Virus record (IMG/VR): IMGVR_UViG_3300021400_000025 | Span: 86,479-150,478 of that record | Direction: 5' to 3' (one strand) | DNA: 64,000 bases | Source of the DNA: a virus | Taxonomy: Duplodnaviria; Heunggongvirae; Uroviricota; Caudoviricetes | Shown: piece after piece, positions 1,959 to 63,814 of the stretch | Position numbering within the stretch: the stretch's first letter is position 1 | Layout: every line of letters starts with the position of its first letter | Notes under the pieces: generated by a model | Databases searched by the model: none | Told to the model about the DNA's origin: nothing | The model's input: only the letters and a program-made list of their open reading frames with translations | Position numbers and translations under genes: made by a program

Positions 1959-1990
1959 TATTTACCATTGTGCGTGGGAAATGGTAAATA
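1959..1990. promoter_or_regulatory. divergent pair of late-promoter-like motifs (AATGGTAAATA on each strand), together forming a 10-bp inverted repeat
   Basis: tatttaccattg at 1959-1970 is the reverse complement of aatggtaaata at 1980-1990. The pair lies between the divergent genes starting at 1952(-) and 2024(+). The same motif recurs at 13887, 60071, 61111(-) and 61917. Confidence 0.45.
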
Positions 1991-2023: not shown

Positions 2024-2935
2024 ATGGTTAGCATCAACAACATAGCGGATCTCAAGAACAGAACATTGATGGAAAGCAACACGTTCAAATCGTTTGTGTT
2101 GTCTTCACAGTCCAACGACTTCACAAATCCTCCATCATTGAACGACATTCTGATACATGAATTCCAGACGGCGAACTCCATCACCTTGAATTCCATCTTG
2201 TCGAACTTCATAGTGAATCTGAAATATGCGTGGACAAAGTGGCTTGATCCACAGTCCATGCAGCATACATCGTATTTTCAAGTTCGGAGGGAGGGCGAAT
2301 CCTACTCCAAGCTGGACGACGAGGTTCGGCTTCTTCTGGACATCATGGACGATGGGACAGGGACGTTCAAGTCCAGATATCTGGAGATGGATGCAGTGAC
2401 CATGACCCCCTCGGAGGGGATTTCCAGATACATCTCCCTTGGTGGATTGTGGTATGGTGTGCAGAAGGTTGCGTTGAGGGACAATGAGGATGACGACAAG
2501 TTGGTTCTGGATTCAGAAAACAACTATATCAGCACAGAGAACCTTGTGCTTGCTCCTGAGCCGTTGAACGACTTCACGATGCACGCCAATCCTTATGGTA
2601 CGAATCCATTTGATGCGCCTGGTTGGGCATGGGACGATGAAGGGAATGCTCCAGATGAACCCAATCGGGGTTCGTTCAACGAGTTCATGAAGGTGCGTGC
2701 TGGAAGCGTCTTGAAAACATCCATCCAGATAGACTGCATTGTTGAAAACCTCTTCAAGGGCAACCAGTTCGACTGCGCGAAGGACGATCTTCTCGCCAAG
2801 TGGATATTTCCCGAATCAGAGTTCATCGTGTGCGCGGGTCATGGGATTTACGCCTTGGAGATGCAATATGACAATGGCAAGTTCGTGGGGATGATGATGT
2901 GGGACATAGGCAAGTTGATTCCCAATCTTGATTAG
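2024..2935 (+). CDS. standard-code segment 1 (303 aa) of the recoded ORF 2024..11590
   Basis: ORF track. It ends at TAG, and the frame stays open into 2987. Confidence 0.4.
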   Translation: MVSINNIADLKNRTLMESNTFKSFVLSSQSNDFTNPPSLNDILIHEFQTANSITLNSILSNFIVNLKYAWTKWLDPQSMQHTSYFQVRREGESYSKLDDEVRLLLDIMDDGTGTFKSRYLEMDAVTMTPSEGISRYISLGGLWYGVQKVALRDNEDDDKLVLDSENNYISTENLVLAPEPLNDFTMHANPYGTNPFDAPGWAWDDEGNAPDEPNRGSFNEFMKVRAGSVLKTSIQIDCIVENLFKGNQFDCAKDDLLAKWIFPESEFIVCAGHGIYALEMQYDNGKFVGMMMWDIGKLIPNLD

Positions 2936-5900
2936 AGCAAATACGAGAATTTTGAGTACGACTTCAAGTGGTGTGGGTTCATCTCCATGGACGAAATAAG
3001 CACATTGGTGGTGATGTTCAGTGACAAGAATGGCAAGTATCACTACGCATATGTCAATGAGAAGTCCTATGACGCGGCATATGGATTCACCCCCATACGC
3101 GATTTGGTGGACAACACATTGACGACCAATCCCCAGTTGGTGTTCAACAGAGTTGATTCAATCAAGCAGCTTGGCGATGTCAACATTGCGATGACCGACT
3201 ATGGCTTCTGGGACTTGGAGTTGAACCAGACGGACAACATCACATATTCATTCAGACACACGGGCAAGTCATACAAAGCATGCACATGGAATGGACATCT
3301 CATGACCAATACCAAGATAATACTTCCTGACAATCACCAGATGATGCCTGGGTCAAAGATATGCGAGTACGACAAGCAGTGGACATTGGATGATTCAACG
3401 AACACCCATTGGGTCATGGATGATTCCACAAAAAGCCAATTCGTTGATGTTGTGAGGGTTGATGGCGAGAAGCATAAGTTCGTGGGTGGACTTCCTGGAA
3501 ACTTCGCATTGTATGATGTCAGCGAAAGCAGTCCGGCGCAGTTGCTTGTTGACATGGATGAAAACGAGTTCAAAAGAGCCATCTTCGCGGATTCGGAGTT
3601 GGCATATAGGTTCACTGAATGGCTGTATGGTCAAGTGGTCTATCCAAACAAGGGGCAGAAGTACATAGACGACATAAAAACAGATGCATGGTGGACTGGA
3701 GATTTCCAGACAAAAGCAGAAACCAAGTCCATATCTGATGTGATATACCCACTTTCTTCCAGTTCGTTCTTGGTTGGCAAGTTCGAGGACATACGACATA
3801 TGATTGGCGATGAAGCCACCTCCCTTCAAGATTACTGCAAAGCATTGGCAGACATCAATGCCACGCCACCATCTTCTGATTTGAATTGGCTTGTCTCTGA
3901 TCAATCATCCTTGGAAGAAGCAATCAAGACTTGGTTCCGCGACACTGACAATGAAAATGGATTCAGTCAAAGGCACAAAGATGGTTTCGTTTAGGAGTTG
4001 ATGCCTCTCATTCAGGGGGAATATCCTCTTCTCTTCACGCACTTCAAGCAGTATTTGAACGATTGGTTGAACGAGACCATTGAGATTCAGGAAGGAGATT
4101 CGCAGACACTGACTTTCACCAATGTGGAGGAGATTTCCAGGAAGGTGAAGGACTACATCATGAGTCTGGTTCCAGTATGTCTGGAGATGGTTGGTTCCGA
4201 TCAATCTGATCTTTTGAGGAAGAACCGTCTTCATCAGAACCAGTTCATGCTTGGGAAGTCCCAGGCATTGGACATATACTCTCCCATGAACGCCAGCAAC
4301 GAGATGCTGAAGGCAGTGAAATCTACACCATTCTTCATGAACGCCAATTCCTATAGTGGAATCATCCAGACCAATGGTTCGCCGTTCAAGATTGAATAGA
4401 ATGTGGAATACGCCAAAAAGTCTGGAATGGTGGATGGCGATGGGAATATACAGTTGAATTGGAATGGCATCAAAGAATGGTTGCTTGGTGATGAAGTCAA
4501 GCAGGATGTGAACGTCCTTAAGGCTTTGGTCAAGACCCAGCTATATCGTCCATTGTTCTTCAAGCATGATGACTACGAGCATTTCACTTCTGATGCAAGC
4601 AAGTATTGGTGCGAGACGCAAAAGTCCTTCAACGACCATAATGGGGTTCTTCATCTTGTCAAATGGGAAAAAGATGGTGACGATGGGGAGAAGTGGGGGG
4701 ATTTGGATCCATCTGGATCAGGATTGACGAGTGATGCTTCAAACATGGAATATACTGAGCAGAAATACAACAAAATCTCCAATGTGATATCATACAATGT
4801 TGTTGTCAAGGACGTGCCCATTGTTGATGGCAAGTTCGTCTACAACGATGTTGAGTTCTATGTCGTCAAGGATAAGGACAACAACCCCACATCTGTGTAT
4901 TTCAACGAGTTCCAGAAGGAAATGGAGCAGTACACCCAGAAGATTGAGATTGAGGACAATAAGTTCAAAATCCAGATCAAATTCATTGACCCACGTGGAC
5001 AATTGGCCGTCAAGGATGTTGAATGCGAATTGATTGATGGTGGCACGAAGGTCAAATTGAATGGGCATGAACAGGAAGTCCATGATGGCATGTTCAATGT
5101 TGATGGCGTGTGGTATGTACTCAACAATGAAGAAAACATTGTGAAGTTCTTCAAGGTGGATGACAGTCTTTTGAGGAAATTGGTGGTTTCCCAGGATGGG
5201 CATGTCATGTTCGATAGGTGGAGTCTTGACATGGAGTTTGGTGGCAATGGTGGAAGTAGCGCAACAGTTGACATCACGCGCCACTATGACATGCCTGTTG
5301 TGGATGTCCTGGTCAAGGAATGGTGTGAATATGACAATTAGCCCATAGTCATTGATGAATTGCGCACATTTGAATGGTGGCTGGCGACCAAAATCAACGA
5401 CATGCGCATAATGCCACAATATCAATCCAGTGTGGATGCTCTGGGGAATGGAAATCTATATGATGGTGGGTTGATGGGTTCCCACTGCGTGTTCTCAGTG
5501 GAGAATGTGGTGGTGGATGGATATGTCCAGAGCCGAGGGGTGTTGACGAAGGGCGAGGGCGATTCCGCAGTGCGCATTGATTTGGGCGTTCTCTACAACG
5601 ACCAGATGGAATTGATTTCCACTAGAACGTTCAGGGGGACTGTCAATGATGCTGGCGAGATAGAAGAAGACCCAACTGGTGGATTCAGGTTCATATTGGA
5701 TTCTGAGGATTCCCCACGCAACATCTGCCATTGCTTCTGGTTGGAGGAGTCCAGGTACAAAAGCACACATTCCCACCAGGATGCTGTCGCGGATGTTGAA
5801 TTCATCTTGGACTACGACCAAGACGACAATGGGACGCCAATGGAGCCAGACCTGTCATAGACTGATTGGCAGATTGCTGTTGATTTTGGTGGACGTCCAG

Positions 5901-8900
5901 GCTTCCCCGAGTATCTGCATCTCACCCCAATCGAGGTGGTGACGCTCTCTGCAAACAAGCGCACGATACGGTTCAATGTGGATGTCAATGAGAATCGGGT
6001 GGGGAGCTACATTGTGAATTCCAGGGACGATAAGGTGGATGTTGTTGTGGATGGAAGGAGATATCGTCTGGATTTGAATGCGAGGACAGTGGAATCGTGG
6101 ACTCTCCAGAATGTTGAGGTTAGCACGATGGACTTCTCCACCCAATACACCCCCCAGACCCTTCGCGATGCGATGGTCAAGAACATTCAGCAGTGGATGC
6201 TGGGCGAGATTGTCCATGCCATGTCCCACAACAACGATGAAAATCCAACCATCATGAAACTGGAGTTGACGGACAAGATGAAGTTGTGGCTGGACATGTT
6301 CGCGGACGACGAGAGTGTTCAGATGCACCTTTTGGCTCAACCCAATGCTGACACCCAGTCCGAGGTGAAGTTCAGAGAGATCTTCAAGAACGATTGGGTG
6401 GAGGAGCGCAACGATTCTGGTCAAGGTCTGGCGTGGAAACATCTAAAGGAAACGATAGATGGGGTGTATGGCGATCAGGTGTCCTTGTCGTTGAACACCG
6501 AACCTGCAATGGAGGTTGGATACGACGAGAATGGCGTGGCAAAGACATTCACCCTCAAGGTGCATGTTGATGTCCATGTCATGCAGAACAGAGACTTGGT
6601 GAAAAACACACCAAATTTCAACGACAAATGGATGGCTTCTTCCGCGACCCTGCACGATGTTGTGTTCTATGTGGAATTCACGCCCAAGTTCTCGTATCAG
6701 TCCAACCCCCTTTCATATGATGTGGAATATGGGATTGAATCTTCAGACAGCATTCTCGCCACCATTGATGGCATCATATTCAACAGTCTTGGAAAGACCA
6801 GAACAAAGACATTGGAAGTTCCAATTAGGATAGAGAGATTCAGTTTAGATGGGATGGAATCTGGACAATCTTCGATGTCCGATCTCAATGGTTTGCTGCC
6901 TGACCAGTTGCTTCCGAAATTTCTGGATTCAACAAAGAGCAGAGCTTTGCTTGAATCTGTCAACGAAAAGATTGATTCGTCGGCATCCTCCTTGGTTGTT
7001 GGAAGTCAAGTCGTCGTCAATGCCCAGATGAAGGATGATGGCGATATCCAGACTGGACATGCGTGGGAGATTGGCTCGCCCATACCATCTGAATCATCTC
7101 TGGGTGGTCTTCAATTCATGGAGGAGAGCCGAGGAAGAACCCAGATATCGGGCGAGGAGTATCAATTGGTTTCATCTGACTCGCGGTTGGTTTCTTTGGA
7201 CGACAACAAAGTCTACTTTGATGTGGAGGAGATAGACCGTGGAATCATTGGCGAACAAGGGAAAGTCCATGTCGCATTGACTGATGAGGAAGTCCCCGAC
7301 TCAACCTATTTGAATGGTTGGTTTTCGCTGGAGAACATCAACGACACAATGTATCTCAAAATCAATGCCAAGAATGGTGGTGATTCCATCTCCTTGCCAG
7401 AGAACAAGGGGGAACTGGTTCTTCATGCCAGTGATTTCCCTGAATTCAAGCAAGAGTACAAGTGGACGATGGGGGATTCCACCACTAGTTCCTTGTGGCA
7501 ATACACATCTGAATTGACTGTCCAAGATGAAAACTGGAACTTCAAGGTGGAGAAGATGCGGTTGGAGAATGATGGAACGGGGTCCGAAACATCCTCAACA
7601 GAATCTGAATTGGTTGGTTCAGCCACGAGAAGCAGTTTAAGTTTCTTGCTGCTGGAGGATGACCAACCAAAGCTGGACGAGCAAGACGACAAATGGGTTG
7701 GTTTTCTGTCTGAAGACGAAGCAGATTCCTCCCAGTCTGGTGTTTTCATGGGACCGAGCCTTACAAACCAAGACGATTTCCATGTCAAGTTGATGTGGGA
7801 AGTTGGTGAAAATGTCGAACCAAAATACTATTTGGTGAACGACAATGCACCAGAAGTCTGTGATGTTTCATCAGAGGATGGCGCATTGTTGTTTGATTAT
7901 GAGTTGCCAATCCAAGTTTCCCCATCAAGTGATGAACCATCATCAAGTGATGAACCATCATCAAGTGATGAACCATCATCAAGTGATGAACCCAAGAAGT
8001 ATGGAGTGGATGGCAAATAGAAGATCAGATTCAAGTTCAACATTGATTCCGACACGAATGAAATAACCTTGTCATAGGCGCAATTGGTGAGCGACACCAA
8101 CAACCGCGATGTGCGTGTTCTTCTTGGTGGCATTCCTGACGCGAAGTTGTGGGATGATGCATTGAATTAGAATGAGAATGAGGATGCTTTGGTGGCGAAG
8201 AACAGCATGAAATCCACTGTGGACAGATGCATGATATACCATACTGTGGGCTTGTTGGGAACCAATGCCGAGTATATTCCAACAGACACTTTCACTGTTG
8301 AGTCATAGGAGACCGTGATGGATGGTGGAATTGAGTTTTCGTTCAAGTTGAAAGTCCAGACCATCGTACAGATGCTCTATGTTGATTAGACCACGGACCA
8401 GAATCCACAATAGGTCATATTTGATCAATATCTGCTGGCAAAGACCTCATCAACAGATATCCCATCGGTGGACAGATTGTTCGCGCTCAAGACATTCTCC
8501 GGCGACAACATCATCATCATAGACTCGACATCTTCATCAATAGACAAAATAGACAATGCGTTTGCGTGGATTCCCACGAACCTGAAAAACGGCATCAAGC
8601 GGGATGAGTATGACTTGAAGATGTTCTATTTGAATGATTTCGTGCCGTCAAATTCATCGTTGCCCAGCTTGAGATATTGTCCGTGCGATATTGTCTCACT
8701 GCCCCCAGACCAGGCTCCATCGCGCGATGGCGAAGTATATGGCAGACAATACACTCACAAGAAGGACATTGTGGTTGAACACACAGACATTGATCAGAAT
8801 GACGCAAATGGGAAGTTCTGGTTGAATCTTGCAGATACCCTCAAGTCAATCACAATCATCCCATCCAATGACCAGTATCCTGATTTGATGCCTGAAAGTG

Positions 8901-11590
8901 ACATCAGCATTCCTGATGCGCTGCGCCAGAAGATGATGGAGCTTGTGGACAACATCATGAAGTTGGACAATGGCTACTTCAGCATGGTGTATCAACAGTT
9001 CAAGCAATTCATGGATGTCCTTGTGGGTGAGTTGTCCAGGAGCATTGACATGGAACACATCAAGGATTTGTGTCGATTCAAGTTCAACAACACAGTGACT
9101 TTCAATGGAAGGACATGGAAAATGTTGAATCCCATCCCACCACCATTGAACAGTACATACAAATCCTGCTTGGACGCATTCGATCTCCATCTATGGAAGC
9201 AATTTTGCGACGACTTCATGCGGGTTGATGATTTGACAGTATACGATGATCGCGACTACAAGCATATTCTCTTACCTGACTACTATGATCAGTATCAATC
9301 AAAGATATAGGCCATGAAGAATGCCAAACTTGGCGACTTGTTCCAGCAACTGGATGAGATGGATGGCATCTATGATGAAGTGTTTAGGGATCTCGCCGAC
9401 AAGGTCAGGTTCATCAATCTTGTTCCCACCACCATCAAGGGTGGAATCAAGGGCATGTTCAACGCAGATGATCAGTGCAATGTGTTCCATTCGCAGGGAG
9501 AGACCATTGTTTGGCGCAGATTCTTCTCGTCTGAACCACAGATGAAGACCATACTGCACAACAAGATTTCCAATCCTGTGGGGAACCATGTGTTCGACCC
9601 ATAGTTCCAGATATTGGACTTTGGCATTGATGATGATGGTTGGTTGTTCAAGTTCGCCAACAGGGATTTGACGCATGACGACACGATGGCGATATCGGAT
9701 GCGTTCTGCGTCCATTGCGAGGGGGATTTGTGGCATCTGAATGTACTTGACACATATTTCAGATCCCCCACATCATATCGCATCAAGGACATCGCCTATG
9801 AGCAGAACGAAGATTGCATCTATGTTCTGTTCTCCGACGACAACCATCTATACAGGTTCGATCATCCATCCATTGGGCAGGATTCCAGGAAATGCGTTCT
9901 TCTTGTGAAGGAGTCTGCAAGCATGAAGATTGAGACGTTCTCCACTGTCCAATTGCAGGATGGCAGTCCATAGTTGGAATCCGTCTATCTGGACTATGAA
10001 GGGTCGGACAATTGGACGATTAGGTTGTACGCCAACGAGTCTGTGGAGACATGGCCCGGAAGTCCATCGTTCTCCATGTTCCAGACCTACAACAACATTT
10101 TGTTCGGGAACTCCTTGTTCAACTCAGGGCAGATGCAGTTCCACAACATATCGAAGAACAAGTAGATGGTGGACATGTTGGATGTCAATGAGGTGGATGA
10201 CCTCTACTATGGATTGTTCAAGAGCAATGTCAAAGGTGATGATGGTGGGTACACGGTGTTCAAGTCATCTGGAGATGGGCAGGGGGTCGTGAAGCGTCTT
10301 CCTTGGAAGGTCGTTGTCCCCAGCATGTTCAGGACTTGCGATCCCTTGTATTCGCTCTATGTCGTGGTCAAGGGGGATGATGGCAAGGTTCAACTGCGCG
10401 AGATTTCATGTCCTGACCAAGACATCTACGCCGACAGAGTGATTGAGGTGCAGCGGATTCTGGAGGAGAAGGATGGCGAGGAGGTGGGCGACTTGAACAT
10501 CAGCTGGCTGATGATGGACGATTTCATCTTGCGCTCTCCCCAATCTTCGTTCTTGATGCTCTCCAACAAGGGGTTGTCCAGAATCCACTATGTCTCCCGC
10601 ATGAAGCAGTTGTCCATAGATGGGCTTCCTGAGTTCAAGGATCTTCTGGCGAAGACATTGAAGGATGGCATTCTCCATAGGCACATGGAGGAGAAGCATG
10701 TCGAGGATTTGTTCAAGCAGATTGAACGCAAGGTCAATCAGCGTGAAACTGGATTCAGCGTGTTCGATTTGCTTCCGACAGAATTCCAACAGACCCAGGA
10801 CATTGGCGTGATTCCAGACTCCAAGATTGACGATGACGACGATTTCACCGATCATAGATCAGACTCCATACAAGTGTCCACCGACTTGACGATGGCAGAT
10901 GGCATGTTCGCGTCAGTCGACACCAATCCTGGGATTGTCTCTGGGGCAGTGGCCAATCCAGCCACAACATATGACAGCGACTATGTGTTCTTGAAGTCCC
11001 AGCGCAACCCCTCCATAGTGGGAACGGAGTTCTATGACTACATCACCGACACTGATGGGAACATCTTGATGGATTTGTATCAGATTCCCTTCATATACCA
11101 GGTCAACACCAACAACACATATGACCTCTACATCAACCTCCCCACAACCAGAACCAAGTATCTGAACAGAATCGCGGGGACTTTGAAGGATGACTTGACA
11201 AGCCAGGTGTTGAAGGATGATGTCCGCGCCAGATTGAACTTCAACAACGAGATGATGCCGAACAACCTTGACGAATCCACAACAAGGTTGAGGGTGTACA
11301 TCGACAGAAAATACATCTCAATAGGCAATGTCGAGTTGGTTGAGATTTCGGGCAACTCAATCCCACTTCAGATATACAGGGACAGTGGCGCGAACAATGA
11401 TCTCTACGATTCAATAGCCCTTGAAAGCAGATGGGATGGAGAGGTTGTTGAAATCAACGAGCCAAGCAAGGACATCAACAAGGTCATGTTGGAGTTCGAG
11501 TGCTATGGAACCGACTCTCAGTCAATCCACATCCAGGGCAAGACCTTGATTAACAGGGCGTTGGACGACAAGAAATACATCTTTGGCTGA
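2024..11590 (+). CDS. composite giant ORF of about 3188 codons, continuous in one frame. It contains 15 in-frame TAG codons and no TGA/TAA, and terminates at TGA 11588-11590. Putative recoded virion megaprotein
   Basis: All eleven standard-code ORFs between 2024 and 11590 share frame 2. Every junction is a TAG followed by open frame, which I verified codon by codon (TAGs at 2933, 3992, 4397, 5339, 5858, 8018, 8075, 8168, 8306, 8387, 8411, 9308, 9602, 9971, 10163). The internal 'starts' have no Shine-Dalgarno sequence. A TAA at 1985-1987 closes the frame upstream. Confidence 0.55.
2987..3994 (+). CDS. standard-code segment 2 (335 aa) of the recoded ORF
   Basis: ORF track. Same frame as segment 1. 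Ends at TAG. Confidence 0.4.
   Translation: MDEISTLVVMFSDKNGKYHYAYVNEKSYDAAYGFTPIRDLVDNTLTTNPQLVFNRVDSIKQLGDVNIAMTDYGFWDLELNQTDNITYSFRHTGKSYKACTWNGHLMTNTKIILPDNHQMMPGSKICEYDKQWTLDDSTNTHWVMDDSTKSQFVDVVRVDGEKHKFVGGLPGNFALYDVSESSPAQLLVDMDENEFKRAIFADSELAYRFTEWLYGQVVYPNKGQKYIDDIKTDAWWTGDFQTKAETKSISDVIYPLSSSSFLVGKFEDIRHMIGDEATSLQDYCKALADINATPPSSDLNWLVSDQSSLEEAIKTWFRDTDNENGFSQRHKDGFV
3998..4399 (+). CDS. standard-code segment 3 (133 aa) of the recoded ORF
   Basis: ORF track (TTG start). Same frame. Ends at TAG. Confidence 0.35.
   Translation: MMPLIQGEYPLLFTHFKQYLNDWLNETIEIQEGDSQTLTFTNVEEISRKVKDYIMSLVPVCLEMVGSDQSDLLRKNRLHQNQFMLGKSQALDIYSPMNASNEMLKAVKSTPFFMNANSYSGIIQTNGSPFKIE
4403..5341 (+). CDS. 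standard-code segment 4 (312 aa) of the recoded ORF
   Basis: ORF track (GTG start). Same frame. Ends at TAG. Confidence 0.4.
   Translation: MEYAKKSGMVDGDGNIQLNWNGIKEWLLGDEVKQDVNVLKALVKTQLYRPLFFKHDDYEHFTSDASKYWCETQKSFNDHNGVLHLVKWEKDGDDGEKWGDLDPSGSGLTSDASNMEYTEQKYNKISNVISYNVVVKDVPIVDGKFVYNDVEFYVVKDKDNNPTSVYFNEFQKEMEQYTQKIEIEDNKFKIQIKFIDPRGQLAVKDVECELIDGGTKVKLNGHEQEVHDGMFNVDGVWYVLNNEENIVKFFKVDDSLLRKLVVSQDGHVMFDRWSLDMEFGGNGGSSATVDITRHYDMPVVDVLVKEWCEYDN
5360..5860 (+). CDS. standard-code segment 5 (166 aa) of the recoded ORF
   Basis: ORF track (TTG start). Same frame. The TAG at 5858 is followed by open frame up to 5936. Confidence 0.35.
   Translation: MRTFEWWLATKINDMRIMPQYQSSVDALGNGNLYDGGLMGSHCVFSVENVVVDGYVQSRGVLTKGEGDSAVRIDLGVLYNDQMELISTRTFRGTVNDAGEIEEDPTGGFRFILDSEDSPRNICHCFWLEESRYKSTHSHQDAVADVEFILDYDQDDNGTPMEPDLS
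5936..8020 (+). CDS. standard-code segment 6 (694 aa) of the recoded ORF. It ends with a PSSSDE tandem repeat
   Basis: ORF track (GTG start). Same frame. Ends at TAG 8018. Confidence 0.4.
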   Translation: MVTLSANKRTIRFNVDVNENRVGSYIVNSRDDKVDVVVDGRRYRLDLNARTVESWTLQNVEVSTMDFSTQYTPQTLRDAMVKNIQQWMLGEIVHAMSHNNDENPTIMKLELTDKMKLWLDMFADDESVQMHLLAQPNADTQSEVKFREIFKNDWVEERNDSGQGLAWKHLKETIDGVYGDQVSLSLNTEPAMEVGYDENGVAKTFTLKVHVDVHVMQNRDLVKNTPNFNDKWMASSATLHDVVFYVEFTPKFSYQSNPLSYDVEYGIESSDSILATIDGIIFNSLGKTRTKTLEVPIRIERFSLDGMESGQSSMSDLNGLLPDQLLPKFLDSTKSRALLESVNEKIDSSASSLVVGSQVVVNAQMKDDGDIQTGHAWEIGSPIPSESSLGGLQFMEESRGRTQISGEEYQLVSSDSRLVSLDDNKVYFDVEEIDRGIIGEQGKVHVALTDEEVPDSTYLNGWFSLENINDTMYLKINAKNGGDSISLPENKGELVLHASDFPEFKQEYKWTMGDSTTSSLWQYTSELTVQDENWNFKVEKMRLENDGTGSETSSTESELVGSATRSSLSFLLLEDDQPKLDEQDDKWVGFLSEDEADSSQSGVFMGPSLTNQDDFHVKLMWEVGENVEPKYYLVNDNAPEVCDVSSEDGALLFDYELPIQVSPSSDEPSSSDEPSSSDEPSSSDEPKKYGVDGK
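7921..7992 (+). repeat. 18-nt tandem repeat ccatcatcaagtgatgaa (about 4 copies) encoding (PSSSDE)n
   Basis: Seen directly in the sequence and in the translated protein. Confidence 0.7.
8468..9310 (+). CDS. standard-code segment (280 aa) of the recoded ORF
   Basis: ORF track (GTG start). Same frame as 5936..8020. Five closely spaced TAGs (8018 to 8413) separate it from the previous segment. Confidence 0.4.
   Translation: MDRLFALKTFSGDNIIIIDSTSSSIDKIDNAFAWIPTNLKNGIKRDEYDLKMFYLNDFVPSNSSLPSLRYCPCDIVSLPPDQAPSRDGEVYGRQYTHKKDIVVEHTDIDQNDANGKFWLNLADTLKSITIIPSNDQYPDLMPESDISIPDALRQKMMELVDNIMKLDNGYFSMVYQQFKQFMDVLVGELSRSIDMEHIKDLCRFKFNNTVTFNGRTWKMLNPIPPPLNSTYKSCLDAFDLHLWKQFCDDFMRVDDLTVYDDRDYKHILLPDYYDQYQSKI
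9314..9604 (+). CDS. standard-code segment (96 aa) of the recoded ORF
   Basis: ORF track. Same frame, TAG-delimited on both sides. Confidence 0.35.
   Translation: MKNAKLGDLFQQLDEMDGIYDEVFRDLADKVRFINLVPTTIKGGIKGMFNADDQCNVFHSQGETIVWRRFFSSEPQMKTILHNKISNPVGNHVFDP
9614..9973 (+). CDS. standard-code segment (119 aa) of the recoded ORF
   Basis: ORF track (TTG start). Same frame, TAG-delimited. Confidence 0.35.
   Translation: MDFGIDDDGWLFKFANRDLTHDDTMAISDAFCVHCEGDLWHLNVLDTYFRSPTSYRIKDIAYEQNEDCIYVLFSDDNHLYRFDHPSIGQDSRKCVLLVKESASMKIETFSTVQLQDGSP
9974..10165 (+). CDS. standard-code segment (63 aa) of the recoded ORF
   Basis: ORF track. It starts on the codon right after TAG 9971 and ends at TAG 10163. 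Confidence 0.35.
   Translation: MESVYLDYEGSDNWTIRLYANESVETWPGSPSFSMFQTYNNILFGNSLFNSGQMQFHNISKNK
10166..11590 (+). CDS. terminal standard-code segment (474 aa) of the recoded ORF. Ends at TGA
   Basis: ORF track. Its ATG directly follows TAG 10163 in frame. Confidence 0.45.
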   Translation: MVDMLDVNEVDDLYYGLFKSNVKGDDGGYTVFKSSGDGQGVVKRLPWKVVVPSMFRTCDPLYSLYVVVKGDDGKVQLREISCPDQDIYADRVIEVQRILEEKDGEEVGDLNISWLMMDDFILRSPQSSFLMLSNKGLSRIHYVSRMKQLSIDGLPEFKDLLAKTLKDGILHRHMEEKHVEDLFKQIERKVNQRETGFSVFDLLPTEFQQTQDIGVIPDSKIDDDDDFTDHRSDSIQVSTDLTMADGMFASVDTNPGIVSGAVANPATTYDSDYVFLKSQRNPSIVGTEFYDYITDTDGNILMDLYQIPFIYQVNTNNTYDLYINLPTTRTKYLNRIAGTLKDDLTSQVLKDDVRARLNFNNEMMPNNLDESTTRLRVYIDRKYISIGNVELVEISGNSIPLQIYRDSGANNDLYDSIALESRWDGEVVEINEPSKDINKVMLEFECYGTDSQSIHIQGKTLINRALDDKKYIFG

Positions 11591-11874: not shown

Positions 11875-12237
11875 TTTTTTTTTTTCATGAAAAACCACAA
11901 TCTCCCAATTTTTCAATGGGGTTTGCGTATAATTGAAGGTGTTGTGTGAATGTCAGGGTTTCATCGGGTTGGATGACTGAAAAGCGAAAACTCGATTGGA
12001 AGTGGTTCGTCCATAGAAAGAGCGCATGTTTTGACTGTGGCAGTGTGTGTATGTATGTGTGTGTTCTGTTTGGCAGAGGGAAGATGCGCTTTGAACCAAA
12101 TCTTGCTTGTATGATGTATATGGGTTCTTCTTTTTCACCTTCTCCCATCAAAATATTCTTCAAAAGAAGGTGATTTTCGTCTCTTTACAATTGCGCGTTG
12201 CTGTGGTATAATTATCTTGAAGGAGAGATACAACAAG

Positions 12238-13261: not shown

Positions 13262-13521
13262 TGGCAAAGCATGAGACTACAATATCATTGAGCGCAGCTT
13301 CCAAGAACCTAAGAATTGCGTCTGTGTTTTGCGCCATTGGTCTTGTGTTGATGGTGTGCCATGTGCCTTGGTGGGTGTGCACTGCTTTCTTCGCATTGTC
13401 TGGTGGATTTCTCTTGTCCATGCTCATGTGCGTATTGGATGTGCAAGAGTTCAAGATGAAGCAGAACCAGAAGATAATCGAATTGCTGTCTAGGATTGTA
13501 AATAAGAATAACAACAATTGA
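13258..13521 (+). CDS. small membrane protein with two predicted TM helices (holin-like topology)
   Basis: ORF track. Hydrophobic stretches VFCAIGLVLMVCHVPWWVCTAFFALSGGFLLSMLMCVL, then a charged tail. Confidence 0.45.
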   Translation: MMAKHETTISLSAASKNLRIASVFCAIGLVLMVCHVPWWVCTAFFALSGGFLLSMLMCVLDVQEFKMKQNQKIIELLSRIVNKNNNN

Positions 13522-13886: not shown

Positions 13887-13897
13887 AATGGTAAATA
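13887..13897 (+). promoter_or_regulatory. late-promoter-like motif AATGGTAAATA, 28 nt upstream of ATG 13926
   Basis: Same motif as at 1980, 60071 and 61917. Confidence 0.4.
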
Positions 13898-13925: not shown

Positions 13926-15509
13926 ATGAAGAACGAACTTGATTGCATATTGAAGAACGAGATTCTGGAGGGATGCATGGATTCCCTGTTGGAATTCTCC
14001 GAATCTGGCGATGGCTCTGCGGTGAAGGTGTATGGTAAGATTGCGGGATTGCCTTGCATTGGCAGGACATATTTCACCACGCAGAAGGAGTTGGATGTGA
14101 CGAACGAGGATGCCCAGACATAGATGATGCAGAAATATGGGGCGGAGACCTATGGCTCCTCTGCGCAATTGAGGCAATAGAGCGCAGATAGATAGAAGGG
14201 GACAGGAACTGAGACGGGGATTGGGTCTGTCGTGGACAGCAAAGACTCCTTGATAGATTGCTCGTTCAAGCCATTGATGAAGCTTCCTGTGAAGTTCCGC
14301 GAATCCATCTGGGGTGGGAATCCAGGCAAGGATTTTCAGGACAAGTGGCAGAAACTGGTTGAGTTGATACAGGGGAAAAGCAAAGACGAAAACTGGGCGA
14401 AGAGCAACCCCAAGATGAAGGAATTGGTTGGGAAGAGGTTTTCGCCTGGTTCTGGGGTTGATAGTCTGGACAACACCAAGCCGTGGAGCGAAGTGCAGAC
14501 CATATTCAACGACAAGGATGTCCAGGCGATGTTGAATCGGGAAAAAGATTTGAACAAGAAGTGGACTGAAGTCCGCAATGCGTGGAATGAGTGGAGTGAA
14601 TCTTCGGGTGGTGGCTCATCTGGCTCTTCTTCTGGTGGAAAGGGAGGTGGTTCTGATTCATCGAAATCGGGTTCTTCTGAATGGGATCCCAGATAGACAT
14701 ACAGGATAGACATCACCACGAAATTCGACAAGAACTGGTTTCAGCGAAAGTTCAAGAGTGGCATGCTCAACAAGATGATAATGGGTTTGAAGACGATGGC
14801 CATGGCGAATCTGGCAAGCGACAGCAAGAACGATAAGAAGGGTTACAAGTACACCGGAAACGAGATGCTTTCCCAGGACGAGCGGAAATTGGACAAAATC
14901 CAGTGGAATATGACGAACAAGGTGGCGAAGGACTACATCACTTATCTTCTTGGGTGGAGCAGAAAGAAGGAGTATTACATGGACGGTTCCCAGCCCAAGG
15001 CTGCATCCACTGCGGATCTTCGAGTTGATGCTGGCGTGGGGAAGAAGTTCGCAGACAAGGCGTTGAGCAATAGAGGCATATTGGGAAGGTTGAGATAGAA
15101 GCTGTTTTCTGGTGGTCAGTCCAACAATGTGGTTTCTGTGGCGTTTCAGTTGGCTGATTGGCGCGATGGATGGAAACTGGTGGAGGAGGATAAGAAGAAG
15201 GGTGGTGAGGAAGGATCTTCTGGTAGGGAGGATGGCGGAAAAGAGGGAGGTGGCTCTGCTGGCTCCGGTGGAAAAGATGGTGGTTCGTCTGGCTCAGGAT
15301 CAACTGGAGTGGGTGGAGGTGGATCGTCTGGGGCTGCAGGCTTGGGCGAGAAGGACATGGACAGTCTAATGACGCTTCTTCAACGGGTCAGGAATGTGGA
15401 GAAGGAGGTATATGGAAAGCAGATGGATGAATCCACATCCAAGGACAACAATGTGGACGGACTTGTGGATGAAGTTCTAATGGCGTACATAGGAGAGAGC
15501 AATGGCTAA
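13926..15509 (+). CDS. composite recoded ORF of about 527 codons with 5 in-frame TAGs (14121, 14178, 14193, 14694, 15096). Gly/Ser-rich linkers. Ends at TAA
   Basis: Track ORFs 13926..14123, 14232..14696, 14763..15098 and 15129..15509 are all in frame 0. Only TAG codons lie between them (verified). A TGA at 13917 closes the frame upstream. Confidence 0.5.
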
Positions 15510-24955: not shown

Positions 24956-26128
24956 ATGTTGAAGGTTCAAGAGTTCATCAAGGGCAACTCGGATTGGGAG
25001 TGCTTGCTTTCGTCCGAGCCTTATTGCATCTCAATATCGCACGATACGATGTATGGGCGCGATTTGGTCATGTTCAAGTACGACCAGATTCGCTCTGACT
25101 TGTCCATTCCTCTTGTTCAGGAGTGTCGTGGTCTGATTCTGGATTCAAACACCTTCGAGGTCGTGTCCCATCCCTTCCACAAGTTCTTCAACTATGGAGA
25201 GGAACTGGCTGTGGACATTGACTGGAAAACAGCCTGGACATCCAGTAAGATCGACGGATCCATCATCAAGGTCGTGAATCTGGATGATGACAATTTCCTG
25301 ATTTCAACGAATGGCATGATTGACGCATTCAAGTGTTCTCTGCCTGAGAACTATGGCCGTCCGTTTGAGACCTTTGGCGAGCTGTTTCTGGAGGGAATGA
25401 AGTTCTATGGTCTGACGATGGATGATTTTCCCCGGCTGTTCAAGCCTGGATTCACCTACATGTTCGAGTTGACTTCTCCTTGGAACCAGGTTGTGGTGAA
25501 TTGGAATGAAACCAAGGTGTGGTTCATTGGGGTGAGGGACAACAGGACTGGCGAGGAGATTAGGTTCTCTGACCACGAACTGTCCAAGATCTTCGACACT
25601 CCCAGGGTGTTTCCGATGAGGTCGTTCGATGATGTGGTGAAGGCTGCGAAGGAACTTCCTGACGACGAGGAGGGATATGTGGTGTGTGATTCTGGATTCA
25701 GAAGGGTGAAAGTCAAGTCCCCCCGATACGTCCAGCTCCACTACATGGCCGGCAACCAGATTTGGTCTCCAACGAGGGTCATGGAGATAATCCGGGACAA
25801 CGAGGTGTCGGAGTATGTGGCATACTTCCCCAAGTTCAAGGTGGCGTTCGACGAAATCAAGGCGAAGTACGATGCCTATGTGGATGAACTGGAGGATGTG
25901 AAGGAGGCCATTGACAATCTGATGGTGGTGGAATGGAACATCACCAAGAAGGACTTCGCCAAGTGGGTGTTCACCATCAACACCATCCGCCCTTACTCTG
26001 GGTTCGCGTTCTCCTACTTTGATTCAGTATACGCGAAAGTCAAGAAGGACGATGCCCTGGTCAGGAACGTTGACGAGTACCTTGCCAAGATGCCCACTGC
26101 GAAGTTGGTGGAGGCTCTTGGATTGTAA
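24956..26128 (+). CDS. rnlA: ATP-dependent RNA ligase 1 (T4 RnlA / gp63 family)
   Basis: Track ORF 24926..26128, with the ATG at 24956 lying after SD caaggagc. The motifs VQECRGLIL, KIDGSII (the KxDG nucleotidyl-lysine motif) and EGYVVCDSGFRRVKVKSPRY match T4 Rnl1 ALECRGIMF, KEDGSLV and [20 protein letters not shown]. Confidence 0.8.
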   Translation: MLKVQEFIKGNSDWECLLSSEPYCISISHDTMYGRDLVMFKYDQIRSDLSIPLVQECRGLILDSNTFEVVSHPFHKFFNYGEELAVDIDWKTAWTSSKIDGSIIKVVNLDDDNFLISTNGMIDAFKCSLPENYGRPFETFGELFLEGMKFYGLTMDDFPRLFKPGFTYMFELTSPWNQVVVNWNETKVWFIGVRDNRTGEEIRFSDHELSKIFDTPRVFPMRSFDDVVKAAKELPDDEEGYVVCDSGFRRVKVKSPRYVQLHYMAGNQIWSPTRVMEIIRDNEVSEYVAYFPKFKVAFDEIKAKYDAYVDELEDVKEAIDNLMVVEWNITKKDFAKWVFTINTIRPYSGFAFSYFDSVYAKVKKDDALVRNVDEYLAKMPTAKLVEALGL

Positions 26129-26153
26129 ATACTTTCAATAAGGAGAAACCGAA

Positions 26154-26753
26154 ATGAAGATTGTCAACGAGATTGGGTTGAACAGGTTGTTCAACAAGCA
26201 TACCGAGAATGGCTATGTCATGGTGTCTGCTTGCCGCCATGACTGGAGCGATGACGATGAGGTTGAGAATCGCGAAATCAACAACATCAAGACGAAGGAG
26301 CTGAAGGAGGACATCCAGAAGGCCGGCTACCAGTACATCCCTGTCCAAGGTGGATTCGTTGAAGACGATGGCACCGAGGTTGTTGAGAGGTCGTTTCTCA
26401 TCGTCAACTTCAGAAACAAGTCCGGCAAAGGGGAGCCAGCCGGCGACTTCTCCAAGTTGAAGGATCTCGCAATCAGTCTGTGTGGCAAGTACAACCAGGA
26501 TTCAGTTCTTGTGGTTGAGCCCGGTGGCAAGCCAACCTACTACACCCGAGAGGGCGAGGTTGATGGTCAGTTCAATTCTGTTTCTGCAAGAGACGCGGCC
26601 CAGCAGTATTTCACCAGGATTGGTGGTGGAAGGAAGTTCTCGTTCATCGAGGGGGCTTCCCAACCAGGAACAATCAATGGAGTGCGTTCAAGGCGCATGA
26701 CTGGCGAGATTTGCGAGTTGGCCGGCTATGACAGGCGCAGGAAGGGAAAGTGA
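26154..26753 (+). CDS. hypothetical protein (199 aa)
   Basis: ORF track. SD aaggagaaacc. Confidence 0.5.
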   Translation: MKIVNEIGLNRLFNKHTENGYVMVSACRHDWSDDDEVENREINNIKTKELKEDIQKAGYQYIPVQGGFVEDDGTEVVERSFLIVNFRNKSGKGEPAGDFSKLKDLAISLCGKYNQDSVLVVEPGGKPTYYTREGEVDGQFNSVSARDAAQQYFTRIGGGRKFSFIEGASQPGTINGVRSRRMTGEICELAGYDRRRKGK

Positions 26754-35673: not shown

Positions 35674-35946
35674 ATGACAGTCGCTGAAATGAAAAAGGTT
35701 CTTGACGAACTGCCAGATGATTATGAAATCCCCGTGCTCACTTGGCTCTTCAAGGAGAATCACCCCTATCTTGTTTCTGAGGACTTCCACCACTTCATTG
35801 AGAAGATGGATGAGAAGGACTTGGACATCAAGGACATATGCTGGGAATTGTCCCTGCTTGGGGATTCGCAGGAGGATCTTGGCAAGGGTCATCTTGTGAA
35901 CAACATCTGGGAGATTGTGAATTATTTACAGAGGTTCATGAAATGA
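35674..35946 (+). CDS. hypothetical protein (90 aa)
   Basis: ORF track. Confidence 0.45.
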   Translation: MTVAEMKKVLDELPDDYEIPVLTWLFKENHPYLVSEDFHHFIEKMDEKDLDIKDICWELSLLGDSQEDLGKGHLVNNIWEIVNYLQRFMK

Positions 35947-39540: not shown

Positions 39541-39590
39541 CCACGATGCTAAAGACATCGTGGCTTCACGGATGTTCTGCTTCGCAGAAC
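39541..39590 (-). ncRNA. two perfect hairpins (ccacgatg-N7-catcgtgg and gttctgc-ttc-gcagaac) at the 3' end of tnpB. Candidate omega-RNA / IS right-end structure
   Basis: Stems read directly in the sequence. Their position matches where IS200/IS605 TnpB guide RNAs are encoded. Confidence 0.35.
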
Positions 39591-40843
39591 GACCCGCGCT
39601 GTATTCGCCTTGGCGAATCACCCCTACGTTCCATAGGTACTTTAAGATTTTTCTCGACAAGGTCCTTGATGTTCAACATGTTCTGTGCGGCATGGATGTC
39701 TCTGTCTTGTTCGTATCCACACTAACACTTGTATGTCCTATCATTCAAGGATAGTTCGTTCATCTTATGGCAATGAGGACACCACTTCGTTGTTGGGATG
39801 TACTTGTCCAATATGATGACATTATCAAGTTTCATCAACTTGGATTTGATTGTTCCCATGCAACTGTGTTGAATAACTTTTGACATTCCTTTTTGCTTGT
39901 GCCATTCTGCCAGTTGCTCGTCTTGTATCACGATTGTGTCATATTGCTTTAGCATATGAACTATCTTGTTTGCCTTGTCTTTTTTCTTATTCGTCAGCTT
40001 CTGGTACTGACGACGGATTCTCTTGATTGTCTTGTATCTCCTGTTTGAACCTTTCTTTTGACGTTGCAGTTTCTTCTGCAACATCTTGAGTCGTTCACTT
40101 TCTTCAACAGATACGTCAAGTTTCTCACCTTCTGAAGTCGTTATGTTCGTTTTGATGCCAAAATCCAGACCTATTTCCTTGTCGTTGGTTTTGGTTTTTG
40201 GCATCTTGTTCTTGTCTATGTAGCATGTCACCTTAAGATAATAGCCATCTGGTTTCTTCAACAAATTTGCATTGGCATATTCATCTACATTCGATAATTG
40301 ATGTGTTCCACGAACTAATATCTTGCCATGTATTCCTTGTATCTTGATCTTGTTTTCTGACTTGAAACTATATGTCTATCCATATTGCTTGAGTGGAATG
40401 CAATTCAATTCAGACTTGAACTGCAAGTTGCCAAATTTCTAATGTCCCCTTTTGACAAGTTGTATTATGGCCATTTGATTGGAGACCATTCTTGCCAAGA
40501 TTGCCTGCTTCTATGCTGCCGACAAGTATTTCAATTCAGATTGAATCAAGTTCTTGTCCTTGTCGTAGTGGTTTACTGTTTTGATGTTTGTGGAGTTGAT
40601 GTCGGATAATCTCAATCCAGATTGTTGATGCAGATTGAGGACATGATTGTAGAACCACTTTCCCTCAACAAAGAGCATGTCAAGTTCTTCGTGTTGGCGT
40701 TTGTTCAATCGTTTCTCTACAATCTTTAGTTCATATGACTTGACGACTTGGTTCTACCTGCGAAGTCTTGTTTGGCTTCGGGTTGCAATAATCTTGTTCT
40801 TCTTTTCGTCAGAACAGACCAATCTATTGTCAATATCCTTCAT
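39566..40843 (-). CDS. tnpB: IS605/IS1341-family TnpB (RuvC-like RNA-guided nuclease). Intact only if 5 in-frame TAGs (40754, 40511, 40439, 40376, 39722) are sense codons
   Basis: Manual minus-strand translation gives one frame from ATG 40843 to TGA 39566, broken only by TAGs. RuvC-I is EIGLDFGIKT, RuvC-II is VIQDEQL, the zinc finger is CPHC...C(TAG)CGY, and RuvC-III DRDIHAAQNMLNI lies after TAG 39722. Track ORFs 39722..40264 and 40511..40708 are fragments of it. Confidence 0.65.
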
Positions 40844-40982
40844 CACATATATTATTTACACAAATCTATACTAAAACTCACTATAATTCTTTACAAAAAT
40901 TCAAGAAAGTTGTATAATATTGATAGCGATTTACATGCGATACTAAAGATATCGCATCTATCTCGCCAGGTTCAATGTATAA

Positions 40983-44787: not shown

Positions 44788-44923
44788 TGGAAAAACAATG
44801 TGCAGTTTTCAATGCATTTCTGTAAATAATAGTCAAGACAATCTAGTATAATTAAACAAATGTACACAGGGTGGTAAAACAAACATACACCCACAAACAA
44901 AGAGAAACAAGAGGAAAAACAAA

Positions 44924-46720: not shown

Positions 46721-46795
46721 GCAATCAAGGTTTTGTTGATGAAATCAATAACCCCCTTGACTCCTGAGGGGGTTTTGTGGTATACTGTAAGTGTT
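46721..46795 (+). promoter_or_regulatory. operator-like palindromes (GCAATCAAG, TTGAT-gaa-ATCAA) followed by an early promoter whose -35 lies inside a CCCCC/GGGGG hairpin with a following TTTT
   Basis: Near-identical 45-bp element at 52951..52990. The CTTGATTGCATCAAG palindromes at 60731..60762 are related. Confidence 0.5.
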
Positions 46796-55853: not shown

Positions 55854-56150
55854 ATGGACACACCATCAATTGAGGAACGCATTGCCGATTTCCAGAGGCA
55901 ATTGGATGTGGTGAGGGAGAAGATGAAGAGAGTGGAGGAATCGTCCCCCAAAATCTACATCAACCTCCGCCAGTACATGAATCGGCTCAGAGAACTCAAG
56001 GGCAAGGAACTTGACAGCAAGGATGAATTGGATTTCGTCCGCCACCAAGTCAAGGCTTTGCTTGCCGACAAGGAGCAGATTGAGAAGGAATATCAGGAGT
56101 TGAAGCAGAAGGAACGTGAGATTCTTCTGTACATTGAAGAACTCAAATAG
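55854..56150 (+). CDS. coiled-coil protein (98 aa), TAG-terminated
   Basis: ORF track. Confidence 0.45.
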   Translation: MDTPSIEERIADFQRQLDVVREKMKRVEESSPKIYINLRQYMNRLRELKGKELDSKDELDFVRHQVKALLADKEQIEKEYQELKQKEREILLYIEELK

Positions 56151-56164
56151 AAAGGAAACTGACA

Positions 56165-60061: not shown

Positions 60062-60087
60062 CCTTGTCCAATGTTGGTAAATACTGA

Positions 60088-60360: not shown

Positions 60361-60417
60361 ATTATTGTAAATAATACCACAAAGACCCCATGTCTTTTTC
60401 ATTAGAGGTATATTACA

Positions 60418-60822: not shown

Positions 60823-61080
60823 TCATCTAATCTTCCATCCATCCCATATGTATTGGGAAGACTCTTGAAACCATTTCACGTTTTTCTGGGGGATTGGGTC
60901 CTTCCCTGCTCTGTCAAGTGAATTGGTTGATATTGGACCCACAGCTTCAATTTTGGGGGGTTCATTGATTGCTTCATGTTCATTCGGGTTGTTTTTCTCT
61001 TGATTGATGGCTATTGCAGTGAACAATCCTGTCAATATTGCCGCAACCACACCCAGTATTTTCGCCTTGTTGAACTTCAT
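60823..61080 (-). CDS. small membrane-anchored or secreted protein (85 aa)
   Basis: ORF track. N-terminal hydrophobic helix. A late motif on the minus strand lies 30 nt upstream. Confidence 0.5.
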   Translation of the reverse strand: MKFNKAKILGVVAAILTGLFTAIAINQEKNNPNEHEAINEPPKIEAVGPISTNSLDRAGKDPIPQKNVKWFQESSQYIWDGWKIR

Positions 61081-61110: not shown

Positions 61111-61146
61111 ATATTTACCATTTTCAACAGATTATTGTAAATATAC
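61111..61146. promoter_or_regulatory. divergent pair of late-promoter-like motifs (minus AATGGTAAATAT, plus TTATTGTAAATATAC)
   Basis: Same arrangement as at 1959..1990. Serves the genes at 61080(-) and 61183(+). Confidence 0.45.
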
Positions 61147-61182: not shown

Positions 61183-61509
61183 ATGGTGAAAAGAACAGGA
61201 AAACAGAGAGTGCGAGATGCTTCTACACCGAGGAATTTGGATGTTTTCTTGAACCAGCCGAACATCAACATGGTGGTTCCGTGGATATATGACATATACA
61301 AGAACATGGCTAAACCTAAATCAAGAGATGGTGAAAGCGAGGATGATCCAATCGCAAAGGATCTTCAGTGCTTCCTCAATCAACCAAACATCAACATGAC
61401 AATACCTTGGATATATGAGATAGCCAAGGCTGTGAAGTCAGGTGGTGGTGGAGGAGAAGGTTCTGACCTGAAATGGGATGACATAGATTTCAATGGGGGC
61501 AATAGTTAA
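61183..61509 (+). CDS. hypothetical protein (108 aa) with an internal duplication (LNQPNINM..PWIY(D/E)I)
   Basis: ORF track. Confidence 0.5.
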   Translation: MVKRTGKQRVRDASTPRNLDVFLNQPNINMVVPWIYDIYKNMAKPKSRDGESEDDPIAKDLQCFLNQPNINMTIPWIYEIAKAVKSGGGGGEGSDLKWDDIDFNGGNS

Positions 61510-61511
61510 TC

Positions 61512-61892
61512 ATGGCGAAAGTAACATTCAAGGTGGTCACTCCACAAAATTTCAAGAATCAACCTATTGTTGATGGTCAGTTGTTGTTTGTCCATGATGT
61601 TAGCACTGGTCTTGGAAAAATATATCTTGATTATGGGAAGACAAGAGTTTGTTATACACCAGAACCAGGAATGAACTATGTTGGCATTTCAACCACAGAT
61701 CCAAAGACTGGAACTGTCACAATAGATGGTCAAGTGCTGCAACCCAGACCTAAAGATGTCGTTGTCTATGGCAAGAAGGAATATATGTGGCGAATAGACA
61801 CTGACAACAACAACCAGCCCAGGTGGATGGAGATTGGAGACGAGGAATCCCCAGATTGGCTTGACTCCACTGGAAGTGAATGGAATACTTGA
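61512..61892 (+). CDS. hypothetical virion-module protein (126 aa)
   Basis: ORF track. Confidence 0.5.
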   Translation: MAKVTFKVVTPQNFKNQPIVDGQLLFVHDVSTGLGKIYLDYGKTRVCYTPEPGMNYVGISTTDPKTGTVTIDGQVLQPRPKDVVVYGKKEYMWRIDTDNNNQPRWMEIGDEESPDWLDSTGSEWNT

Positions 61893-62014
61893 AATTCCAC
61901 TTGAGTTTTATTGGTCTTTTTGGTAAATATACATCGAGATTGGATTTCCCATTGGGAGTTGTGTTCTCATTGGGATTTGCAAATCACAACAAAAACACAA
62001 AGAGGTAAACAATA

Positions 62015-63724: not shown

Positions 63725-63814
63725 ATGATGATTGACGCTGGAGCGACAGAAGTAACTACTTGGAACATGCCAAGCTGATTGACTTGTCAAGCAAGCATTA
63801 GATTGGTACATTAA

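Follow-up and report, generated by a model that had tools for sequence, protein, structure and literature searches.

The element KGTAAATA, which recurs through the 64,000-nt window (the whole stretch of phage DNA analysed here), is best interpreted as a variant form of the late promoter of phage T4. Most probably (about 0.7), the KGTAAATA sites are T4-type late promoters that lack a −35 element and are recognized by the RNA polymerase core in association with a phage-encoded sigma factor of the gp55 family. The family and its type of promoter are known already; here they appear in an unexpected setting. In the mechanism that we propose, a single −10-region element, (a)AT(G/T)GTAAATA, would be read by the host RNA polymerase core together with the gp55-family sigma. 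Host sigma-A promoters (TTGACA/TTGACT-N17-TGnTATAAT/TATACT) would drive TAG-free early genes, including the gene of a phage sigma-70-family factor. The gp55-like gene would itself be expressed from a TATAAT-type −10 element, and its product would direct RNA polymerase to the KGTAAATA sites that head structural, TAG-containing genes on either strand. We infer that the gp55-like protein reads the motif, and we infer likewise the position of the start site and the timing of expression.

One protein encoded in the window is identical, residue for residue, to a protein of a 416,990-bp ENA contig (ERZ28612966 scaffold_7), on which the window occupies approximately 1–63 kb, and a second window protein occurs on a 418,130-bp ENA contig. 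To judge from the names of samples and assemblies, the source is rumen metagenomes. Our reading covers about 100 kb of the 417-kb genome. A megablast search of the first 20 kb of the window against cultured phages gives no match, and an IMG/VR search with the RNA ligase gives no relatives. When TAG is read as sense, fragments fuse into long genes, such as gene 2024–11590 (3188 aa, 15 in-frame TAGs), and the TAG columns align with CAG or CAA (Gln) in orthologues. The only tRNA in the window is tRNA-Arg-TCT, and no suppressor tRNA is found either there or in 15 related loci. Promoters and ribosome-binding sites are of the kind seen in bacteria that have a canonical sigma-A. TAG may still act as a stop in early genes: several genes terminate at TAG, or a TAG close to the gene end joins them in frame (55854–56162, 62015–63778, and 19097–20668 in the window, and L038 12489–20381, just past the right end of the window).

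KGTAAATA occurs 15 times in the window, compared with 1.24 copies expected, and 0 of 100 shuffles reached 15. The string TGGTAAATA is present in 7 copies (0.10 expected), and TTGTAAATA in 5 (0.21 expected). Non-coding DNA makes up 9.7% of the window, yet it holds 12 of the 15 KGTAAATA copies (binomial P=2.5e-10), and two further copies overlap just the last codons of the upstream gene. Fourteen copies face a start codon 5–96 nt downstream; the first-pass annotation had also placed the motif upstream of start codons, at the narrower range of 7–80 nt. The exception, at 35923(−), lies antisense within a gene and is probably due to chance. All eleven copies in the first-pass annotation are real and lie within a few bases of where it put them; it missed the copies at 13497(+), 26124(+), 40853(−), and 35923(−). 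GTAAATA is preceded by G or T in 15/15 copies, and the TAAATA hexamer by GG or TG in 15 of the 17 cases in the window. Depletion of TAAATA outside the motif (2 copies, ~6.6 expected) is marginal, and hence is not used as evidence. A literature search with the motif strings returned primers and unrelated matches, and nothing else. The sites that face a start codon are as follows.

1959..1969, minus strand: AATGGTAAATA, 6 nt upstream of ATG 1952; opens a leftward, tape-measure-like gene of at least 650 aa with one in-frame TAG; orthologous site in L002, L005, and L006.
1980..1990, plus strand: AATGGTAAATA, 33 nt upstream of ATG 2024 (gene 2024–11590); conserved in L002, L005, L006, L010, and L019.
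13494..13504, plus strand: GATTGTAAATA, 33 nt upstream of ATG 13538 (93 aa, with a Shine-Dalgarno sequence).
13887..13897, plus strand: AATGGTAAATA, 28 nt upstream of ATG 13926; heads the run 13926–20668, with 5 in-frame TAGs in gene 13926–15509 and 2 in gene 15502–18561.
21403..21413, plus strand: TTTTGTAAATA, 8 nt upstream of ATG 21422; a second ATG, at 21437 (23 nt away), has a Shine-Dalgarno sequence.
23818..23828, plus strand: TATGGTAAATA, 8 nt upstream of ATG 23837, a leaderless-type spacing; ORF to 24184 with one in-frame TAG.
26121..26131, plus strand: GATTGTAAATA, overlapping the RNA ligase stop codon; 22 nt upstream of ATG 26154.
40853..40863, minus strand: TTGTGTAAATA, 9 nt upstream of ATG 40843 (ORF 39566–40843).
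44818..44828, plus strand: TTCTGTAAATA, 95 nt upstream of ATG 44924.
60073..60083, plus strand: GTTGGTAAATA, 5 nt upstream of ATG 60089 (90 aa, 2 in-frame TAGs).
60363..60373, plus strand: TATTGTAAATA, 44 nt upstream of ATG 60418.
61112..61122, minus strand: AATGGTAAATA, 31 nt upstream of ATG 61080 (gene 60823–61080, with a Shine-Dalgarno sequence).
61133..61143, plus strand: TATTGTAAATA, 39 nt upstream of ATG 61183 (genes 61183–61509 and 61512–61892).
61919..61929, plus strand: TTTGGTAAATA, 85 nt upstream of ATG 62015 (587 aa, tail-fibre-like, LRR_5).

Two of these copies are ambiguous. The function of the copy at 26121..26131 (core 26124) is less certain than that of the others, and the copy at 44818..44828 (core 44821) is ambiguous because a TATAAT lies 18 nt downstream of it. 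The genes headed by the motif include the tape-measure-like leftward gene and the tail-fibre-like gene in the window, and genes for tail tube (phrog_45, E=2.8e-13), tape-measure-like, and tail or baseplate-like proteins in relatives. Not all motif-headed genes look late. Gene 26154–26753 is a TAG-free member of the SAM-lyase family (PF23780, E=8e-14), and ORF 39566–40843(−) encodes a TnpB-like protein (OrfB_IS605) with 5 in-frame TAGs. SAM lyase is of the anti-restriction type, as in phage T3; the gene here directly follows an RnlA-type RNA ligase gene, with TGTAAATA in front. The same TGTAAATA stands in front of the TnpB-like gene, a mobile-element gene that appears to have adapted to the phage code and to the late promoter class. 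In relatives, a TnpB gene lies beside the gp55-like gene in L045, and others lie elsewhere, in L043 and L050–L054.

Each of the two gene divergences of the window (1952/2024 and 61080/61183) carries two outward-facing copies of the motif. The pair TATTTACCATT/AATGGTAAATA at 1959–1969/1980–1990 is an 11-nt inverted repeat with 100% complementarity, and the pair ATATTTACCAT/ATTGTAAATAT at 61111–61121/61134–61144 is an 11-nt inverted repeat with 91% complementarity. The divergent pairs had been described as inverted repeats of 10–12 bp, and both repeats are there, but they would represent two separate outward promoters instead of a palindromic site, because in relatives the spacer between the copies varies from 10 to ~27 nt. 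Read on the opposite strand, the motif holds TTTAC(C/A), which resembles the −35 sequence TTTACA of this phage, at 18 bp in both pairs. An arrangement of each pair as one promoter sharing −35 and −10 elements was considered and rejected: relatives keep both copies over the same range of spacers.

The inverted repeats look operator-like, as does a palindrome in this genome, TTGAT-N3-ATCAA. The motif could accordingly be the binding site of a sequence-specific DNA-binding protein beside promoters, or another signal, and not the promoter core. We regard this as very unlikely. Single, asymmetric sites account for 40 of the 72 usable clade sites, the spacing within pairs is not fixed, the orientation relative to the downstream gene is strict, and the shortest distances to the ATG (a 5-nt minimum and a class at 5–9 nt) leave no space for a separate promoter. 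Being intergenic, oriented with respect to the strand, arranged back to back at divergent pairs, conserved, and at least 5 nt from the ATG, the motif behaves as a promoter.

The motif recurs across a clade of rumen phages of 0.2–0.44 Mb. In conserved genes, nucleotide identity between the relatives and the window is just 66–84%, so recent common ancestry does not explain why the motif is invariant. The motif is kept in members whose sigma-70-family factor is 38–45% identical. Other contigs carry homologues, at 36–47% identity, of the giant gene's first 303 codons. In L002, L005, and L006, the intergenic region reads TATTTACCAT...ATGGTAAATA, with a spacer that differs in sequence and length. 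An exact-pattern scan of IMG/VR for the pair finds 27 loci, of which about a dozen have the GC content of this phage (0.43–0.50); two of the GC-matched contigs measure 414,060 and 433,895 bp, and the larger one has five pairs.

The same three relatives carry a further arrangement (L002 7734, L005 7682, and L006 7702), in which GGTAAATA is followed by the leader ACTCC-loop-GGAG(C/T)CATTTA-ATG. The ACTCC/GGAG hairpin, kept in all three, would be predicted to sequester the Shine-Dalgarno sequence. The gene behind this leader has a weak match to Stealth_CR2.

To define the consensus, 29 sites were aligned first, and then the 72 usable sites among 79 non-redundant clade sites. The extended consensus is a-A-T-K-G-T-A-A-A-T-A, with 10–11 informative positions in the position matrix. 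The information content over the 72 clade sites shows nothing resembling a −35 element; T is weakly favoured 16 nt upstream of the invariant G.

T4 late promoters consist of an 8-bp element beginning at −13, with no −35 element and a tight consensus, and occur in both polarities (PMC2988020). The likeness to them that the first-pass annotation had pointed out holds at the level of sequence: TAAATA corresponds to positions −11 to −6 of TATAAATA, which in T4 spans −13 to −6 and is served by gp55, gp33, and the gp45 sliding clamp. The TAAATA core is common to both systems and is invariant in all sites here; exact TATAAATA is absent from the window. As in T4, the sites lack a −35 element, have a tight consensus, lie on both strands, and head structural genes. 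Unlike in T4, the element opens with G/T-G in place of T-A, such that −12 is G and not A, and three more upstream positions (a-A-T) are conserved. The setting differs as well: the genome is that of a ~417-kb TAG-recoded rumen phage, and gp33 and the clamp are not found in the parts of it that were read.

Relatives of T4 retain the late element, and that of Aeh1 differs at −13/−12 only (a/g-C); variant late promoters of KVP40, 44RR, and S-PM2 have been reviewed together with it (PMC2988020). The signal described here resembles the Aeh1-type variants, in that a lineage-specific −13/−12 dinucleotide is combined with a retained TAAATA. Such variants show that lineage-specific change at −13/−12 is tolerated within the gp55 family as long as TAAATA is kept. 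The present signal differs from them in the dinucleotide itself (K-G) and in belonging to a far more distant lineage (gp55 identity ~22%).

The element may also be compared with the sigma-70 extended −10 promoter (TGnTATAAT), which likewise depends on the −10 region alone, with no −35 element, and whose TG is in register in the ATGG variant of our motif. The motif could then be a weak or variant extended −10 element (TGnTAAATA) of the host primary sigma, with no phage factor and no temporal class. In agreement with this, ATGGTAAATA contains TG-n-TAAATA in the extended −10 register, and the phage clearly uses host-type promoters elsewhere. However, hexamers of the sigma-70 type have a near-invariant T at −7, and TAAATA has A there. 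In addition, the TG is shifted in the TTG variant, all 8–10 positions of the motif are invariant while the host-type class in the window is degenerate, and the two classes partition the genes by TAG content. The canonical TGnTATAAT class coexists with the motif in the same genome, where it heads different, TAG-free genes. We consider it highly improbable that the host primary sigma reads the motif.

The spacing between motif and gene bears on the position of the transcription start. When the 79 non-redundant clade sites are measured from the final A of the motif to the first ATG with a long ORF, the distances form a bimodal distribution: 16 sites lie at 5–9 nt, 4 at 10–19 nt, and 37 at 20–39 nt, the second class extending in broader terms over 20–45 nt. 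The 5–9-nt class is enriched (P=5e-8). None of the 79 sites has a credible distance below 5 nt; in two apparent cases of 3 nt, a better ATG follows a few bases on. Within the window, the 5–9-nt spacing is found at 1959(−), 23821, 60076, 40853(−), and 21406. The orthologous sites at 60076 in the window and at L028 5065 are both exactly 5 nt from the ATG.

If the TAAATA core occupies −11 to −6 as in T4, transcription would start ~6–7 nt past the last A. An ATG at 5–9 nt would then belong to a leaderless or nearly leaderless mRNA, and an ATG at 20–45 nt to an mRNA with a short leader containing a Shine-Dalgarno sequence. The bimodal spacing agrees with a start at this point and with a subset of leaderless mRNAs. 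For the site 1959..1969(−), a leaderless or near-leaderless mRNA is predicted. The N-terminus of the leftward gene that begins at 1952 (M-EEKKD) aligns with MSEEKKD or MAEEQK of relatives, indicating that this near ATG is the real start. In the relatives, the ATG of the orthologue lies ~20 nt from the motif, after a Shine-Dalgarno sequence.

Because TAAATA matches the final six positions of the T4 late element, we searched the clade ORFs with T4 gp55 (NC_000866). By phmmer, an ORF of ~215 aa is matched in each lineage for which that region is available (E=3e-10 to 1.5e-6). The gp55-like protein matches the whole profile of PHROG phrog_234, 'late sigma transcription factor' (E=3e-17), and its best match in the PDB is 7d7c_F, gp55 of the T4 late transcription complex. 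The gene at L058:9923–10564 shares the 416,990-bp contig with the window, at ~244 kb and about 180 kb from the window, and one member of the cluster sits on the 418,130-bp contig; further clade members are those of L021:4379, L030:3148, L045-48, and L049-56. Thus, the gp55-like sigma that the first-pass annotation proposed to look for is encoded in the same genome and throughout the clade. The 20-kb locus L058 around the gene contains ten further KGTAAATA sites, including two divergent pairs.

In the cryo-EM structure of the T4 complex, gp55 flips A-12, A-9, and A-8 into pockets formed by N13, L54, R57, F86, H95, Y97, and T99 (PMC7892883). In an alignment of four clade proteins, N13, Y97, and T99, the residues that bind A-9, A-12, and A-8, are invariant, as in T4, and the other residues are changed (F86 to Y, H95 to F, L54 to Y, and R57 to H). 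One may speculate that A-9 and A-8, which both systems share, are read by the conserved residues, and that the altered residues go with the replacement of A by G at −12. Since −12 is G and pocket residues differ (L54Y, R57H, and H95F), recognition is not identical to that in T4. The clade protein differs from T4 gp55 in two further respects. It has a basic N-terminal extension of ~40 aa with in-frame TAGs, and the hydrophobic C-terminal motif by which gp55 binds the clamp is not evident in the clade alignment; coupling to replication may therefore not apply. Homologues of gp33, gp45, gp44, and gp62 are not found by phmmer in several hundred kb of clade loci, which represent a small part of the genomes. 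T4 gp32, gp59, gp46, gp47, and dsbA likewise have no match among the same clade ORFs, where only gp55 and RNase H do.

The genome encodes a second sigma factor, of the sigma-70 family, that could read the motif instead and is the chief rival of the gp55-like protein. This protein of 260 aa (L007:4758–5540, on the same contig, 2.4 kb upstream of window position 1) contains regions 2 and 4, is nearest to FliA/WhiG and SigB/F/G (phrog_351, E=7e-22), and finds no match among cultured phages by tblastn. As an extended −10-type late or middle sigma, it could use KGTAAATA as its promoter. It is retained along with the motif across the clade, at identities as low as 38%; its residues equivalent to region 2.4 differ from those of sigma-70 (by eye, against the E. 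coli sequence), which would be compatible with another −10 specificity; and in this genome its gene is preceded by a perfect TTGACA-N17-TATAAT, which would suit an early gene. Several observations make this assignment unlikely. The protein retains region 4, but the sites have no −35 element, and in the pairs the −35 zone falls in variable sequence. The protein is only 38–57% identical across the clade while the motif is invariant, whereas the gp55-like proteins are 70–96% identical; this far higher constraint parallels the invariance of the motif, and we assign the motif to the gp55-like factor. The TAAATA core also fits the known specificity of the gp55 family, and we know of no group-3 sigma with a TAAATA-core specificity. 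Finally, another sequence class, GTATAATTGA, is available as a possible target of the 260-aa protein.

That class has 7 copies in the window (0.05 expected), mostly without a −35 element, at 11927, 23020, 24441(−), 40977, 44315, 45739, and 50143, one of which precedes tRNA-Arg(TCT) at 23184–23259. These sites may represent a third class of promoters, the middle ones, conceivably served by the 260-aa sigma.

Many phages larger than 200 kb encode their own RNA polymerases, and the ~100 kb inspected are a minority of the 417-kb genome. The motif could thus be the promoter of a phage RNA polymerase, either single-subunit or of the phiKZ/AR9 multisubunit type. We judge this extremely unlikely: scans of proteins from the window and its flanks against Pfam or PHROGs turn up none that is RNA-polymerase-like, the phage has two sigma factors, which work with the host core enzyme, and early genes carry canonical host promoters. 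The giant 3188-aa protein was considered as a virion RNA polymerase and set aside, as it matches no Pfam family.

The proposed late class can be set against a second class of promoters in the window. These have the canonical form (CCC)TTGACT/TTTACA-N17-TGnTATAAT/TATACT, often followed by ATAGG, and are presumed to be early promoters of the host sigma. GTATAATT is the most over-represented 8-mer of the window (12 copies, 0.25 expected). The approximate −10 positions of this class are 11612, 12207, 21930, 22400, 24916, 26800, 32640, 34190, 45740, 46800, 49092, 53000, 56556, and 58980.

The two classes differ in the genes that they head. The first gene has an in-frame TAG after 7 of 14 KGTAAATA sites and after 0 of 11 TATAAT-type promoters (P=0.008), and all genes with several in-frame TAGs are either first or co-directional after a KGTAAATA site. 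In the genes of ~28–60 kb, 1 of 9123 codons is an in-frame TAG, compared with 31 of 6014 codons in TAG-containing genes (P=7e-12). The suggestion that these promoters switch on the recoded genes is borne out as far as sequence can tell, in that in-frame TAG is confined to genes downstream of the motif. It counts against the main reading that 7 of the 14 first genes have no TAG, and that one of these seven is SAM-lyase-like. SAM-lyase-like genes are early in other phages.

The palindrome TTGAT-N3-ATCAA has 6 copies in the window (0.41 expected), at 46736, 52952, 52972, 60732, 60750, and 3153. It forms tandem pairs at two of three intergenic loci, beside promoters, and is a candidate operator for a dimeric regulator.

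The gp55-like gene is itself recoded. It contains 1–4 in-frame TAGs in 5/5 lineages (L021, L030, L045-48, L049-56, and L058), all of them in codons 13–30 of the basic N-terminal extension and none in the other ~190 codons. The extension is clade-specific and is missing from T4 gp55. The TAG codons vary by lineage (13, 24, 25, 26, and 30), and in the other lineages the same columns hold mostly Gln, with Arg or Lys in column 25. Among Gln-type codons in the extension, 10 of 20 are TAG, compared with 10.4% in the late genes of the window (P ~1e-5, for lineages that are not independent). The gene is preceded by a GTATAATT-type −10 element (L058 9820) and by no KGTAAATA site. The TAGs suggest that full-length late sigma is made only after TAG suppression begins.

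Late transcription may thus be locked to the code switch, with a TAG-gated gp55-like sigma turning on the KGTAAATA promoters of TAG-containing genes; we offer this tentatively, at somewhat less than even odds. In such a circuit, reading of TAG as glutamine would yield full-length late sigma, which would turn on the KGTAAATA promoters, a feed-forward gate that is translational first and transcriptional second. Stop-codon recoding has been proposed as a regulator of late or lytic genes by Borges et al. (bioRxiv 10.1101/2021.08.26.457843). As in that model, early genes here fit the standard code and structural genes need TAG as an amino acid. Unlike that model, which is purely translational, a dedicated promoter class coincides with the recoded genes here, and the late sigma gene is itself recoded. 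Neither the word promoter nor the word sigma factor occurs in the preprint, and no description of a link between late sigma factors or promoters and recoding was found in the literature searched.

Recoded phages are thought to delay their late proteins by a stop-to-sense switch. In an uncultured clade of ~417-kb rumen phages, a recognizable promoter class, probably tied to an identifiable sigma factor, marks the recoded genes, which yields a concrete, testable circuit and a rule by which late operons and leaderless starts of these phages can be annotated. The late system of the T4 gp55 type would extend to very distant megaphages, and, if the proposed locking is true, these phages would possess a two-layer feed-forward gate of a kind undescribed for recoded phages.
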